The position numbers were made by a program, and so were the translations under genes. DNA of 64,000 nt from Spirochaetia bacterium (GTDB lineage: Bacteria; Spirochaetota; Spirochaetia; WTKD01; G963693115), in the NCBI GenBank assembly GCA_965226065.1, contig OZ245332.1, forward strand, positions 1,316,774 through 1,380,773. Reading direction: 5' to 3'. Below the pieces are notes generated by a model. That model searched no databases. It was given only the letters and a program-made list of their open reading frames with translations, and was not told the DNA's origin. Positions 41,369 through 46,977 of the stretch are shown here, piece by piece. Every line of letters starts with the position of its first letter. The stretch's first letter is position 1.

Positions 41369-42471
41369 ATGCGTTGTCTTGAAGATATGCAGTGATAAAC
41401 ACATCTATTTCACCATTCATTACCGCTTGCACATTACCGATTTCTGTGTTTGTTCTGTGGTCTTTTACGAGAGAGTAGGGGTGAAACACGTAAGATCGAA
41501 TTTGATTACCCCATGCTATGTCTTTTTTTTGATGCATGGTTTTTTCTCGCTCTGCTTTTTGCTGTTGCTGAAAGTGGTCGTGAAGGCGACTTTTTAAAAT
41601 TTTTAATGCAGTATTTTTATTTTTGTGTTGAGAGCGTTCGTTTTGACATTGCACTACAATGCCCGTCGATATATGCGTAATTCGCACCGCAGAATCAGTT
41701 TTGTTTACATGTTGTCCACCTGCTCCGCTTGCACGATAGGTGTCTATGCGTATTTCATCTGTAGTAAGTTCAACTTCTGTTTCGTCTTCAATAATAGGAG
41801 AAGCGTGTACAGAGGCAAATGTCGTATGTCTACGCCCGCTGCTATCAAAAGGCGATATTCGTACAAGTCTGTGAATACCTGTTTCCGCATGCAAGTAGCC
41901 GTAGGCGTATGAGCCGCGGACTTCCACGATTGCGGATTTTACACCCCCTTCGGCGTATTGAATGTCTAGCGTGTTCGTGCTAAAGCCTTTGCGCTCACAC
42001 CAGCGCATGTAAAGTCGAATAAGCATTTGCACCCAATCGCAAGATTCAGTACCACCTGCACCTGTGTGAATGGTAAGAAATGCGTTACTTTTATCGTAGA
42101 CTCCGTTTAGAAGTGCCTTTGTTTTAAGCTCTGCAAAGGCGCCTTGCGTCTTTTGGTATTCGGTAGACAATTGCTCAAGCGTTGTTTTTTGCTCTTCTTC
42201 ATTAGCTTCTTTTAGCAACTCGTAAAGCACTACCATGTCTTCAGCAGATTGCTTGACAGCGTGCCAATTTTCGAGAAGCTTTTTTTTCTCATTTAATGCA
42301 TAGAACGTTTGCTCAGCCTTTTGGCGGTCGTTCCAAAAATGTTCTTCTTGTGTTTTTTTTTCAAGTGCATCTATTTCTCGGCTCATTTTTTCCGAGTCAA
42401 AGACGCCTCCAGTTTTCTAGCACCTCTTTTTGAAGCGATGCTAAAAGCTCAGGATTTTCAATTATATTCAT
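41361..42471 (-). CDS. prfB: Peptide chain release factor 2 with programmed +1 frameshift
   Basis: 24-codon first frame ends TGG AGG CGT CTT TGA C; second frame has the SPF and GGQ motifs. Confidence 0.96.
42396..42410 (-). promoter_or_regulatory. RF2 +1 frameshift site (internal SD GGAGG + CTT TGA C)
   Basis: Minus strand reads GGAGG CGT CTT TGA C. Confidence 0.95.
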
Positions 42472-42628
42472 ACTGTAAAGTATATCATGGCTATCTTTTT
42501 CTTATGTCTTATGTTATGGGTATTGTTCTAGAAAAGAAGTACATTTTCATGCATTATTTACAAATAATGTAAATAAAAAAGTTATATACTTGTTATAGTA
42601 TCTTGTTTATAATATAACGATTATTGAA

Positions 42629-43435
42629 ATGAAGAAAGAAACTATTATTCAATTGCATGAGAAGATAAAAAAAGTATCTCCATTGGTGCATAACATTACA
42701 AATTACGTTGCAATGAATATTACGGCAAATGCACTTCTTGCGATAGGAGCATCTCCTGTTATGGCACATGCTCAGGCAGAAGTATCAGACATTGTTTCTA
42801 TTGCTTCTGCGTTAGTTATTAACATAGGCACACTAAGCGATGATTCGATTTCGAGTATGTTTCTCGCTGCTAAAACAGCGAAGGAACAGTGCAAGCCATT
42901 TGTCTTAGATCCCGTAGGATCGGGTGCTTCATCGTATAGAACTAAAACCTGTAATGCTCTTATGAAAGAAAGCAGCCCAAGTGTTATACGAGGGAATGCT
43001 TCAGAGATTATGAGCTTATGCGAATACGACATTGAAACAAAAGGTGTTGATAGTGCTGTTAAAAGCCATCGCGCTATAGACGCTGCAAAGAAACTCGTGC
43101 AACAAAGCGATGCTACTGTCGTGGTAAGTGGTGAAATTGATTATGTGGTTTCTCATAATACGATAAGTGAAATACGAAACGGCGATGTGCTTATGAGGCG
43201 TGTTACAGGCATAGGTTGTACTGCTACTGCACTTATCGGTGCTTTTGTGGCAGTGGAGCAACATATGCATACTGCATCAGTAGCAGCAATGGCACTTATG
43301 GGTATTGCGGGAGAAATCGCTGCTACCGTTGCAAACGCTCCGGGAAGTTTTCACACTGCTTTCATAGATGCGTTATATGAAATAAATGCTGATGATATTT
43401 CAAGTAAAATTTCTGTGAACACACATGACTATTGA
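42629..43435 (+). CDS. thiM: Hydroxyethylthiazole kinase
   Basis: PLVHNITNYV, ANALLAIGASPVMA, LDPVG, RGNASEI and GIGC. Confidence 0.95.
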   Translation: MKKETIIQLHEKIKKVSPLVHNITNYVAMNITANALLAIGASPVMAHAQAEVSDIVSIASALVINIGTLSDDSISSMFLAAKTAKEQCKPFVLDPVGSGASSYRTKTCNALMKESSPSVIRGNASEIMSLCEYDIETKGVDSAVKSHRAIDAAKKLVQQSDATVVVSGEIDYVVSHNTISEIRNGDVLMRRVTGIGCTATALIGAFVAVEQHMHTASVAAMALMGIAGEIAATVANAPGSFHTAFIDALYEINADDISSKISVNTHDY

Positions 43436-44069
43436 TTATTCGCTTATGTTTGTTACCGATGATCGTATTACCGATGAGATATTATTTCTCAATGTTTTAC
43501 GAGATTCACTTGAAGGTGGCGTATCTATAGTGCAATTACGAGAAAAAAAAACGAGTACGCGTTATATGTATAGACGCGCACGTGTAGCACAAACGCTTTG
43601 TCGTAAATATGAGGTGCCATTTATTGTCAACGATAGGGTAGACATTGCATTAAGCGTTGATGCGGATGGGGTACACGTAGGACAAACTGATATGCCATTG
43701 CACGTCGTGCGAAAGCTTTTAGGGCGTGATAAAATAATAGGGCTTTCGATAAGCAGCGAACGCGAAGTTGTTCTTTCTACAATAGGCGAGGAGGTAGATT
43801 ATTTGGGAGTAGGCCCTGTGTTTGCGACCGACACAAAAATTGAAAATTTAGCACAACCATTGGGGATTAAAAATTTAACTTCAATACGTATGCTTACAAG
43901 CAAACCTTTAGTAGCCATTGGTGGTATTAGCATTGCGAATGCTCAGGCGGTTTTAGGTACAGGGGTGGAAGGTATTGCGGTTGTTTCAGAAATTTCGCAA
44001 GCGGAAAATCCGCTACAAAATAGCAAAACATTACGGAGGATTGTATGGAAAGCTGGTATGAGAAAATGA
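43425..44069 (+). CDS. thiE: Thiamine-phosphate synthase
   Basis: VQLREK, NDRVDIA, GVHVGQTD, TDTK and AIGGI. Confidence 0.95.
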   Translation: MTIDYSLMFVTDDRITDEILFLNVLRDSLEGGVSIVQLREKKTSTRYMYRRARVAQTLCRKYEVPFIVNDRVDIALSVDADGVHVGQTDMPLHVVRKLLGRDKIIGLSISSEREVVLSTIGEEVDYLGVGPVFATDTKIENLAQPLGIKNLTSIRMLTSKPLVAIGGISIANAQAVLGTGVEGIAVVSEISQAENPLQNSKTLRRIVWKAGMRK

Positions 44070-44692
44070 GATTGAAAACAGATTATATTATCAAAGCTAT
44101 TTTTCAGCATGATTTTATCAAAAAGTTGCTCACGGGCAAATTAGATGCGAGCACCTTTATTTTTTATGTGCAACAAGATGTCTTATATCTTTCAGAATAT
44201 CGCCGCGTGCTCGCTATCTTAGGTGCTCGCTTACATCAAACTGATCATTCGCAGTTTTTCATTGATTCTGCGAATAAAGTAATTTCTACCGAGAGTGAAG
44301 TTCATGATAAATTCTTGCAAGGAATAGGGACAGCATTTCATTCTCCGACTTGTGAATTATACATAAGCTATTTGAGTAGAATAGTTAATACACAATCAGT
44401 GGAAGTGGGGATGGCTGCGGTGTTGCCGTGCTTTACTATTTATCGAGAAGTAGGTAATTACATATTCAAAAATCAAGAATCAGGCAAAAATCCATATCAA
44501 GATTGGATAGACACCTATAATAGCGAGTCATTTTCGGTGACTACGGATACCGCTATAGAAATTTGTAATTCATATGCGCATATTACAAATAATGCAACGC
44601 AGCTTGCTATGGAAAAAGCGTTTCTCATGTCTTCAAAATTAGAATGGATGTTTTGGGACAGTGCATATCAAAAAGAGCAGTGGAAAATATGA
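44066..44692 (+). CDS. tenA: TenA (thiaminase II / aminopyrimidine aminohydrolase), copy 1
   Basis: YVQQDVLYL, AAVLPCFTIY (catalytic Cys), YQDWIDTY and EWMFWD. Confidence 0.92.
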   Translation: MRLKTDYIIKAIFQHDFIKKLLTGKLDASTFIFYVQQDVLYLSEYRRVLAILGARLHQTDHSQFFIDSANKVISTESEVHDKFLQGIGTAFHSPTCELYISYLSRIVNTQSVEVGMAAVLPCFTIYREVGNYIFKNQESGKNPYQDWIDTYNSESFSVTTDTAIEICNSYAHITNNATQLAMEKAFLMSSKLEWMFWDSAYQKEQWKI

Positions 44693-44799
44693 TGCAAAAG
44701 TATAATGTTGTTTTGAAAATTACAAAAAGCGATAGTGGACACTCCGCTACAAAATAGTGAAACATTACTGAGGATTGTATGGAAAATTGGTATGGAAAA

Positions 44800-45426
44800 A
44801 TGAGATCGAAAACAGATTATATTATTCAAGCTATTTGTCGGCATACTTTTATCAAAAAACTGCTCACGGGTAAATTAGATGCGAGCACCTTTATTTTTTT
44901 TGTGCAACAAGATGTCTTATATCTCTCAGAATATCGTCGCGTGTTTGCTCTCTTAGGTGCTCGCTTGCCTCAAACTGATCATTCGCAGTTTTTCATTGAT
45001 TCTGCGAATAAGGTAGTTTCTACCGAGAATGAAGCTCATGAAAAATTCTTGCAAGGAATAGAGCCAGCGTTGCATTCTCCAACTTGTGAATTATACATAA
45101 GCTATTTGAGCAGAGTAGTTAATACACAATCAGTGGAAGTAGGGATGGCTGCGGTGTTGCCGTACTTGACTGCTTGTCGAGAAGTAGGTAATTACATAGT
45201 AAAAAATCAAAAATCAGGCAAGAATCCATATCAAGATTGGATAGATACCTATAATAGCGAGTCATTTTCGGTGACTACGGATACCGCTATAGAAATTTGT
45301 AATTCATATGCGCATATTACAAATAATGCAACGCAGTTTGCTATGGAAAAAGCGTTTCTTATGTCTTCAAAATTAGAATGGATGTTTTGGGACAGTGCGT
45401 ATCAAAAAGAACAGTGGAAAATATAA
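44800..45426 (+). CDS. tenA: TenA copy 2 with altered active site
   Basis: Paralog of copy 1 with AAVLPYLTAC in place of AAVLPCFTIY. Confidence 0.9.
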   Translation: MRSKTDYIIQAICRHTFIKKLLTGKLDASTFIFFVQQDVLYLSEYRRVFALLGARLPQTDHSQFFIDSANKVVSTENEAHEKFLQGIEPALHSPTCELYISYLSRVVNTQSVEVGMAAVLPYLTACREVGNYIVKNQKSGKNPYQDWIDTYNSESFSVTTDTAIEICNSYAHITNNATQFAMEKAFLMSSKLEWMFWDSAYQKEQWKI

Positions 45427-46232
45427 TGCAAAAGTATAATGTTGTTTTGACAATTGCAGGAAGCGATTCGGGTGCTTGTGCAGGTATTCAAGCAGACATA
45501 AAGAGTATTGGTGCTAATGGTGCTTTTGCAAGTACTGCTATCACTGCGATTACCGCACAAAATACGGTAGGAGTACAGCACATATTTCCAATACCTGTAG
45601 AGCATATTATTCATCAAATTTATTCTGTATTGAGCGATATCAATGTACATGTCGTAAAGATAGGTATGCTTCATTCTGTCGAAGTCATAAAAGCAGTGCA
45701 AAATATTTTACAAAAATACCGTACTATTCCCATAGTGCTTGATCCTGTTATAGTTGCTACTTCGGGAGATACGCTTATCAGCGATGATGCAATTCATACC
45801 TTAAAAAGTTTTTTACCCGATGCTACGCTTATTACGCCTAATATTCCTGAAGCGCAGATATTACTCAATGGTGTTGCGATTGATGAACACAATATATCCG
45901 ACTCTGCACATCAGCTTGGTACAATGTATAACACTTCTGTGTTATTAAAGGGAGGGCATTTAAAAACAAAGAATATCGTGCGTGATGTTTTGTATCTGCA
46001 CGCAGAAAATAAGCATGTACTGTTTGAAAACGATTATATAGATACTAAAAACACACACGGTACAGGATGCACACTCTCTTCGGCTATTGCGGCACATATG
46101 GCGTGTGGTAAAAATATAGCGCAGGCAACAGCCTCTGCACGAGAGTATCTCTCTTGTGCGATAAAGTCTGGGGTTCATATGCAACTTGGCAAGGGCTGTG
46201 GTCCCGTACAGCACTTTTGTCTTAAGCCTTAG
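45426..46232 (+). CDS. thiD: HMP/HMP-phosphate kinase
   Basis: IAGSDSGACAGIQAD, VKIGML, LDPV, TPNIPEA and THGTGCTLSSAIA. Confidence 0.95.
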   Translation: MQKYNVVLTIAGSDSGACAGIQADIKSIGANGAFASTAITAITAQNTVGVQHIFPIPVEHIIHQIYSVLSDINVHVVKIGMLHSVEVIKAVQNILQKYRTIPIVLDPVIVATSGDTLISDDAIHTLKSFLPDATLITPNIPEAQILLNGVAIDEHNISDSAHQLGTMYNTSVLLKGGHLKTKNIVRDVLYLHAENKHVLFENDYIDTKNTHGTGCTLSSAIAAHMACGKNIAQATASAREYLSCAIKSGVHMQLGKGCGPVQHFCLKP

Positions 46233-46295: not shown

Positions 46296-46332
46296 AGTCA
46301 GTGTATACCCACTACGATACAGGTATAAGTTA
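46296..46332. terminator. Hairpin between convergent thiD and the ABM gene
   Basis: ctgtaatcgtagt ... actacgatacag stem with one bulge; U-tract is weak. Confidence 0.4.
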
Positions 46333-46977
46333 TTTGTTAAGGTTTATTGCTAATACTTTATACTGTTTTGTCTTCGCTAGCACACCATCATCCCAGCCAC
46401 CAACAAGCAAGTCCTGTGCTTTTTTGTGAATGAGTCCTGCAACCTTACCATTAAGATGTGCTTCAACTCCAGATTGATCTGCAAAAAAATCAATAACGCC
46501 AAATTGATTATCGGTAAATTGCATACCATACCAAAAAGCTGTTTTCGGTTCTGTAGCCTTTATAACCTCTGCTCCATCGCTGAGAATTTTAGCAAAGTCC
46601 GCTTCTCTTTGAGTTTTAGCGTGAACGATGGTAATAACTGAAATATTCATTTCATCGGGATTATCAGAGGTCTTGCTTGATAAAATACGTGGATTTTTAA
46701 TATTAGACACTACTCCATTATCCCACCCGTCTTTTATGAGATTCTCGGCATTTTGTTTTACTAACGATGCTACCTGTCCCTTGAAATGAGCTTTTCTTCC
46801 TGCATCATCGGCGAATGTATCGAAAATAACCATTTCATCTTCATTTTGTAATGCCGCCCATAGTAATGTTAATGGTTCAGTTTTTGCTACTAATTGAGCA
46901 CTTGTACTCAAAAATTGTACTAATTCTTGTTGTTTACCTTCTTTTGCGTGAATATTTATATAACTTGCTTCTTTCAT
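46330..46977 (-). CDS. Tandem ABM-like (putative quinol monooxygenase) two-domain protein
   Basis: Two similar halves: TEPLTLLW..IFDTFAD..GRKAHFKGQVA and TEPKTAFW..VIDFFAD..GVEAHLNGKVA. Confidence 0.75.
   Translation of the reverse strand: MKEASYINIHAKEGKQQELVQFLSTSAQLVAKTEPLTLLWAALQNEDEMVIFDTFADDAGRKAHFKGQVASLVKQNAENLIKDGWDNGVVSNIKNPRILSSKTSDNPDEMNISVITIVHAKTQREADFAKILSDGAEVIKATEPKTAFWYGMQFTDNQFGVIDFFADQSGVEAHLNGKVAGLIHKKAQDLLVGGWDDGVLAKTKQYKVLAINLNK

Follow-up and report, generated by a model that had tools for sequence, protein, structure and literature searches.

A tandem tenA duplicate with a reciprocal Cys/Tyr exchange in its catalytic helix within the thi operon of an uncultured spirochaete

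The stretch analyzed here, referred to as the window, comprises 64,000 nucleotides of contig OZ245332.1 (positions 1,316,774 to 1,380,773, forward strand) from the genome of a Spirochaetia bacterium. It carries a tightly packed thi operon, which the list of open reading frames (ORFs) and Pfam matches resolve into the order thiM-thiE-tenA-tenA-thiD on one strand. A repeat search and an ungapped alignment confirmed that the adjacent tenA genes form a tandem duplication, as had been proposed from the sequence alone: a 734-bp unit is repeated directly, head to tail and with zero indels. Between the two genes (tenA-1 and tenA-2, here also copy 1 and copy 2), 50 of 648 nucleotides are different (92% DNA identity), and their proteins share 189 of 215 residues (88%) in a gap-free alignment. 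The stop codon of tenA-1 is followed by approximately the first 16 codons of thiD and then by approximately the last 12 codons of thiE, the latter containing the tenA ribosome-binding site. This junction of thiD 5′ and thiE 3′ remnants is what would be left by a straightforward tandem duplication whose unit extended from the 3′ end of thiE through tenA to the 5′ end of thiD.

The source genome is that of an uncultured organism, a point in favor of an artefact of assembly or sequencing, for instance two strain alleles stitched together in tandem or a motif patch copied from another locus. However, an independent 1.8-Mb contig from the ENA, representing a strain that is ~0.4% divergent, was found to contain both genes, the junction, the 734-bp period and the LPYLTAC motif that distinguishes copy 2. 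Each of the two assemblies carries single-nucleotide polymorphisms (SNPs) of its own, and the presence of the duplication and of LPYLTAC in a second assembly thus argues against an assembly artefact. In addition, the remnants of thiD and thiE at the junction are still recognizable, a genome-wide search revealed no third TenA gene, and no ectopic donor was found: the 16-nt core of the motif was unmatched within 2 mismatches and a 29-nt patch within 3. The last two results also led us to reject gene conversion, or a templated patch from elsewhere, as the origin of the altered motif. Taken together, we consider an artefact highly improbable.

The motif in question lies in the catalytic helix, which reads LPCFTIY in copy 1 and LPYLTAC in copy 2 with identical flanks. 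Five nucleotide changes, all of them nonsynonymous, account for four replacements within five codons (C129Y, F130L, I132A and Y133C). Alignment of both copies to TenA of Bacillus subtilis placed C129 at the position of Cys135 and Y133 at that of Tyr139, so that the sequence-only reading was correct in its motif positions and in describing a cysteine and a tyrosine that trade places one helical turn apart. In the B. subtilis enzyme, Cys135 acts as the nucleophile, and activity is abolished by a C135A mutation (PMC5623701), which also bears out the earlier assignment of the LPC cysteine as the TenA_C nucleophile. In the Pyrococcus furiosus enzyme, the pyrimidine is sandwiched between the tyrosine at position i+4 and the aromatic equivalent of B. 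subtilis Tyr47 (PMC5623701); judging from the conserved i/i+4 spacing, P. furiosus Tyr132 probably corresponds to Y133. Outside the exchanged pair, the pocket is unchanged in both copies (Asp45, Tyr48, Tyr106, Tyr158, Glu200 and Phe203), including the Asp of QQD (Asp45) and the Glu of EWMFWD (Glu200), whose retention had been noted before.

To place this helix in its family, 118 other homologues were collected by a search of 5.8 billion proteins. The four replaced sites are 98 to 100% invariant among them, and the unusual aspect of the swap is therefore which positions were hit. Spatial clustering was rejected as a sign of selection, since five differences within 13 nt (P=0.30) and four replacements within five residues (P=0.11) are both within chance. 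A quasi-palindrome-templated mutation was also considered and found no support; copy 2 has gained a small hairpin (−5.1 versus −2.5 kcal/mol), but with a z-score of just −1.1. The pattern LPCF.[IV]Y was present in 118 of 118 homologues and at 80 of 80 related genome loci, and the LPYLTAC arrangement was found in none of either set. A motif search of the 5.8 billion proteins returned just the copies of the two strains, and an exact 28-nt scan for the copy 2 motif in metagenome contigs yielded zero matches. The proposed search for the variant elsewhere thus recovered it from no source outside the two strains. None of the 80 related loci contained a tandem tenA. The nearest relatives are a metagenome-assembled genome (MAG) of the same genus (69% identity; thiM-thiE-tenA-thiD with a single tenA) and a contig from Logan (76% identity). 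The proteins that come next in similarity carry the annotation thiaminase II, and LPC is present in all of them.

Both copies clearly belong to the TENA_THI-4 family (Pfam PF03070), with scores of 106.8 bits for copy 1 and 105.1 bits for copy 2 at a cut-off of 22. An AlphaFold2 (AF2) model of copy 2 reached a predicted local distance difference test score (pLDDT) of 92.9 and a predicted template modeling score (pTM) of 0.90, and Foldseek superimposed it on the B. subtilis TenA chains with TM-scores of 0.90 to 0.92, as expected for the all-helical, haem-oxygenase-like fold of TenA. The direction of change was determined with the two nearest relatives as outgroups (L004 and L007): of the replacements, 16 arose in copy 2 and three in copy 1, and seven are ambiguous. 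At eight sites where conservation in the family reaches at least 95%, copy 2 deviates (Y41F, L56F, I80V, V86A and the four-residue cluster); copy 1 alone deviates at none. Because the outgroups assign 16 replacements to one copy and three to the other, copy 2 is, by its sequence, the derived copy, and copy 1 is an ordinary TenA_C of the ancestral type. In terms of TenA classes, where B. subtilis has Cys135, copy 1 carries a cysteine as well (Cys129) and copy 2 a tyrosine (Tyr129); the equivalents of Asp44 and Glu205 are present in both (Asp45 and Glu200), and copy 2 descends from within the TenA_C clade as the tandem sister of copy 1. The sequence-only reading had drawn an analogy to the Cys-less TenA_E proteins. 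According to PMC5635689, TenA_E is a separate clade defined by a glutamate at or next to the cysteine position (P. furiosus Glu128-129). Copy 2 shares with it the absence of the canonical cysteine, but it carries Tyr129-Leu130 in place of the defining glutamate and arose recently by duplication within TenA_C. Neither the analogy nor convergence of copy 2 on TenA_E was sustained.

Selection was assessed by our own codon-model likelihood analysis of six sequences, comprising both copies from both strains and two outgroups. The codon-level comparison that had been suggested for the two copies gave a pairwise ratio of nonsynonymous to synonymous substitution rates (dN/dS, or ω) of 0.32 at a synonymous divergence (dS) of 0.18. 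In a maximum-likelihood (ML) branch model, ω was 0.10 for the background and 0.10 for copy 1, and it rose to 0.75 for copy 2. Copy 2 evolved faster than the background (likelihood ratio test [LRT], 17.9; p=2e-5), and its ω was not distinguishable from 1 (p=0.66). The branch-site test for positive selection was null with either foreground (ω2, 1.4 to 2.2; LRT, 0.16 to 0.52; p=0.47 to 0.69), and positive selection on copy 2 was thus not detectable. Between the two strains, the ratio of nonsynonymous to synonymous polymorphisms was 3:2 in copy 2 and 0:3 in copy 1. With ω=1 not rejected and the branch-site test null, the "neofunctionalisation caught early" that the sequence-only reading had put forward is not demonstrated.

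The arrangement of the operon bears on whether copy 2 is made (Table 1). The 3′-terminal 25 nt of thiE overlap the start of tenA-1, and an identical 25-nt overlap exists in the relative L004. The chimeric mini-ORF at the duplication junction, which translates as MQKYNVVLKITKSDSGHSATK followed by a stop, begins with an ATG that overlaps the tenA-1 stop codon and ends 21 nt upstream of the tenA-2 ATG; it could hand ribosomes on to tenA-2. A GAGG lies 6 nt upstream of the tenA-2 ATG, and the corresponding element of tenA-1 is GGAGG. The thiD ATG in turn overlaps the tenA-2 stop codon (TAATG). No promoter-like site and no credible terminator-like site were detected between the tenA copies, and from this layout the copies appear to be co-transcribed and are probably translationally coupled. 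A scan of the 240-bp leader of thiM (42387-42628) for a thiamine pyrophosphate (TPP) riboswitch was negative, both with the gathering score and with a cut-off of E<=1. Just 3′ of thiD, on the minus strand, a 215-aa (amino acid) ORF at 46330-46977 apparently consists of two tandem ~100-aa domain repeats; the annotation of the sister strain has no Pfam match on record for it.

Table 1. Features of the thi operon and of the tenA duplication, in positions of the window
Feature	Coordinates	Strand	Evidence or remark
thiM, hydroxyethylthiazole kinase, first gene of the operon	42629..43435	+	Pfam PF02110 HK, E 2.9e-82
thiE, thiamine-phosphate synthase	43425..44069	+	Pfam PF02581 TMP-TENI, E 2e-62
Duplication unit 1, 734 bp: thiE 3′ end, tenA-1 and ~16 first codons of thiD remnant	44009..44742	+	
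tenA-1, ancestral-type TenA_C thiaminase II by sequence, 215 aa	44045..44692	+	PF03070, E 1.7e-30
Copy 1 catalytic helix C129-F-T-I-Y133, predicted Cys nucleophile and pyrimidine-stacking Tyr	44429..44443	+	
21-codon chimeric mini-ORF that joins a 5′ remnant of thiD to a 3′ remnant of thiE	44692..44757	+	Duplication junction
Duplication unit 2, 734 bp: thiE 3′ remnant with ribosome-binding site, tenA-2 and genuine thiD start	44743..45476	+	
tenA-2, derived paralogue, intact ORF, 215 aa	44779..45426	+	PF03070, E 5.8e-30
Altered catalytic helix of copy 2, Y129-L-T-A-C133, with Cys and Tyr exchanged and with F130L and I132A	45163..45177	+	
thiD, kinase of hydroxymethylpyrimidine (HMP) and HMP phosphate (HMP-P)	45426..46232	+	Pfam PF08543, E 3.8e-82

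The operon resides in a 1.85-Mb genome. Thiamine pyrophosphokinase, ThiM, ThiD, ThiE and TenA are present; ThiC was not found in the 1.85 Mb, and ThiG gave just a weak partial match of 51 positions in the whole genome. In the absence of ThiC, the organism is apparently auxotrophic for thiamine precursors, living on salvage and depending on salvaged pyrimidine. TenA was detected in three of 41 related spirochaete genomes and, beyond the two near relatives, is closest (~50% identity) to thiaminase II of marine Bacteroidota and Campylobacterota. This rarity and this likeness suggest a horizontal acquisition of tenA or of the whole operon. The only TPP riboswitch of the genome (69.5 bits) is located outside the window, at C1:792425-795488 (locus L097, 3927-6897, minus strand), where it heads a ThiX-like permease gene and two tandem genes for ThiY/NMT1-type lipoproteins. 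These two lipoproteins are 77% identical (dS, 0.87; ω, 0.18). Over the first 52 codons there is hardly any difference between them, suggesting homogenization of the signal peptide and linker by gene conversion. A single close ThiY orthologue exists in the same-genus relative, and the lineage therefore appears to have duplicated two steps of pyrimidine salvage, of which both ThiY copies, to judge from their sequences, are clearly maintained.

Our tentative preference, which falls just short of an even call, is that copy 2 is a duplicate that has lost its catalytic ability and evolves under relaxed selection, either drifting to loss or kept for a non-catalytic role. The tandem duplication would have taken place after the lineage split from its nearest known single-tenA relatives. 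Copy 1 would have stayed a working aminopyrimidine aminohydrolase (thiaminase II) that supplies HMP to ThiD and ThiE, while the redundant copy 2 would have lost both the nucleophile (C129Y) and the stacking tyrosine (Y133C), together with changes of the neighboring residues (F130L and I132A). Copy 2 would then have evolved under strongly relaxed constraint, at least across its first 145 codons. It is presumably still produced via translational coupling within the operon and presumably still folds as TenA, but probably without the standard Cys129-dependent reaction. A loss of canonical activity would be expected because C135A inactivates B. subtilis TenA and because the i+4 tyrosine stacks on the pyrimidine. 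Relaxed constraint on a crippled copy is at least as likely an explanation of the data as neofunctionalization, and a new function of copy 2 is possible.

Several observations weigh against simple decay. The copy 2 ORF contains neither a stop codon nor an indel in both strains and has its start codon, stop codon and ribosome-binding site; it lacks the disrupted frame of a pseudogene. After 29 to 35 neutral substitutions, however, an ORF would survive intact 15 to 20% of the time, and intactness alone is thus weak evidence of function. Of the 26 replacements, 25 fall within codons 1 to 145, and the synonymous differences are evenly spread. When the gene was split there post hoc (joint ML with shared branch lengths), ω of copy 2 was 1.05 in codons 1 to 145 and 0.16 in codons 146 to 215, the part that contains Tyr158, Glu200 and Phe203. 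In this two-part model, heterogeneity was supported (p=0.0016) and a uniform ω of 1 was rejected (p=0.006); simple counts for the codon 146 split were only suggestive, with a Fisher p of 0.028 and a permutation-corrected P of 0.16. Recent gene conversion is unlikely to have caused the similarity of the 3′ third, where five synonymous differences occur in ~42 sites versus ~15.5 in 86 elsewhere. Tandem repeats are usually lost fast by recombination, and the persistence of this one to a dS of ~0.18 in a small, deletion-prone genome hints at retention. The swap itself also looks more orderly than drift would lead one to expect: the exchange is reciprocal, and the side-chain volumes of the four changes roughly compensate, with Cys to Tyr adding bulk and the replacement of Phe by Leu, of Ile by Ala and of Tyr by Cys taking it away. 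By a rough estimate, a neutral pair of C-to-Y and Y-to-C replacements at exactly these sites has a probability of ~1e-3 before post hoc discounting. All other pocket residues of copy 2 are also intact.

The hint of C-terminal constraint keeps two functional explanations alive. One of them supposes that copy 2 is active with a relocated nucleophile: Cys133 would sit over the face of the pyrimidine, Tyr129 would stack, Leu130 and Ala132 would make room, and the reshaped pocket would accommodate another pyrimidine derived from thiamine or would hold the original one differently oriented. Such a rearrangement would fit the reciprocal, volume-compensated exchange of two residues that face the pocket from one helix (i, i+4), the otherwise preserved pocket, the ORF that is intact in two strains, the apparent constraint on the third that holds Tyr158, Glu200 and Phe203, and the confident TenA fold of the model. 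The retention of two diverged ThiY-type proteins (ω, 0.18) suggests, moreover, that more than one pyrimidine is imported. A relocated nucleophile is opposed by the missing signal in the branch-site test, by an ω of ~1 in the very region that encodes the remodelled helix, by replacements that still accrue as polymorphisms, and by the absence of the arrangement from the 118 homologues and 80 loci. We therefore regard a relocated nucleophile as unlikely, and a working enzyme whose cysteine migrated by one turn to provide a second pyrimidine-processing activity, possibly matched to the second ThiY-type protein, as quite doubtful. The other explanation, already named as an alternative in the sequence-only reading, makes copy 2 a non-catalytic binder with a TenA fold, which might bind or buffer the pyrimidine or modulate copy 1 as partner in a mixed oligomer. 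The binding residues outside the swapped pair are kept, copy 2 appears to be co-transcribed and is probably translationally coupled with copy 1, and non-enzymatic members of the TenA family exist, e.g., LysR2 (PMC12817078); constraint that seems confined to the C-terminal helices mildly favors this role. On the other hand, losing the stacking tyrosine should weaken pyrimidine binding, and the case for constraint hinges on where the gene was divided after the data had been seen. We likewise judge a binder unlikely, and a disabled copy under relaxed selection is, tentatively, our preferred reading.

The outcome matters in either case. If copy 2 were active, it would represent a rare natural before-and-after case of an active-site nucleophile that changes position, and a third type of TenA active site beside TenA_C and TenA_E, which would bear on predicting the thiamine breakdown products that microbes recycle. 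A migrated cysteine would make the pair a very young and still traceable example of catalytic-residue migration after gene duplication; the ~23 replacements that lie between its two states are few enough that every intermediate could be rebuilt and assayed. If copy 2 were inactive, the pair would be an ordinary but clean case of asymmetric decay after tandem duplication. It would also serve as a warning, as annotation pipelines will call the nucleophile-less copy 2 a thiaminase II.

Among known systems, B. subtilis TenA (PDB 1YAF, 1YAK and 2QCX; TenA_C, EC 3.5.99.2) provides the closest frame of comparison used here. Both copies share its family, PF03070, the copy 2 model matches its fold with a TM-score of 0.92, and both possess the equivalents of Asp44, Tyr47, Tyr112, Tyr163, Glu205 and Phe208. 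Copy 1 additionally has those of Cys135 and Tyr139, whereas in copy 2 a Tyr takes the place of Cys135 and a Cys that of Tyr139. The location of the tenA genes among thiM, thiE and thiD is also typical. With the TenA_E proteins (Arabidopsis At3g16990 and P. furiosus PF1337), copy 2 has in common that the canonical cysteine is missing and that the setting is salvage of the thiamine pyrimidine, as described in PMC10277260 and PMC5635689. In contrast, TenA_E is a separate, old clade marked by its glutamate, and copy 2 is a Tyr-Leu-bearing recent offshoot of TenA_C. A TenA fold without the catalytic cysteine also occurs in LysR2 (PDB 9WDG; PMC12817078) and in the "Treg" subgroup (PMC5623701). Their similarity to copy 1 is remote (E 3e-7), and Treg lacks both Cys135 and Glu205, whereas copy 2 keeps Glu200 and the remaining pocket. 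More than one TenA per genome has been described for Thalassospira and Pelagomonas, where the advantage was called unknown and a dosage effect was suggested (PMC10470507). The spirochaete resembles them in possessing multiple TenA proteins but differs in that its genes form a young tandem pair, which has evolved with strong asymmetry and carries an altered catalytic helix in one copy.

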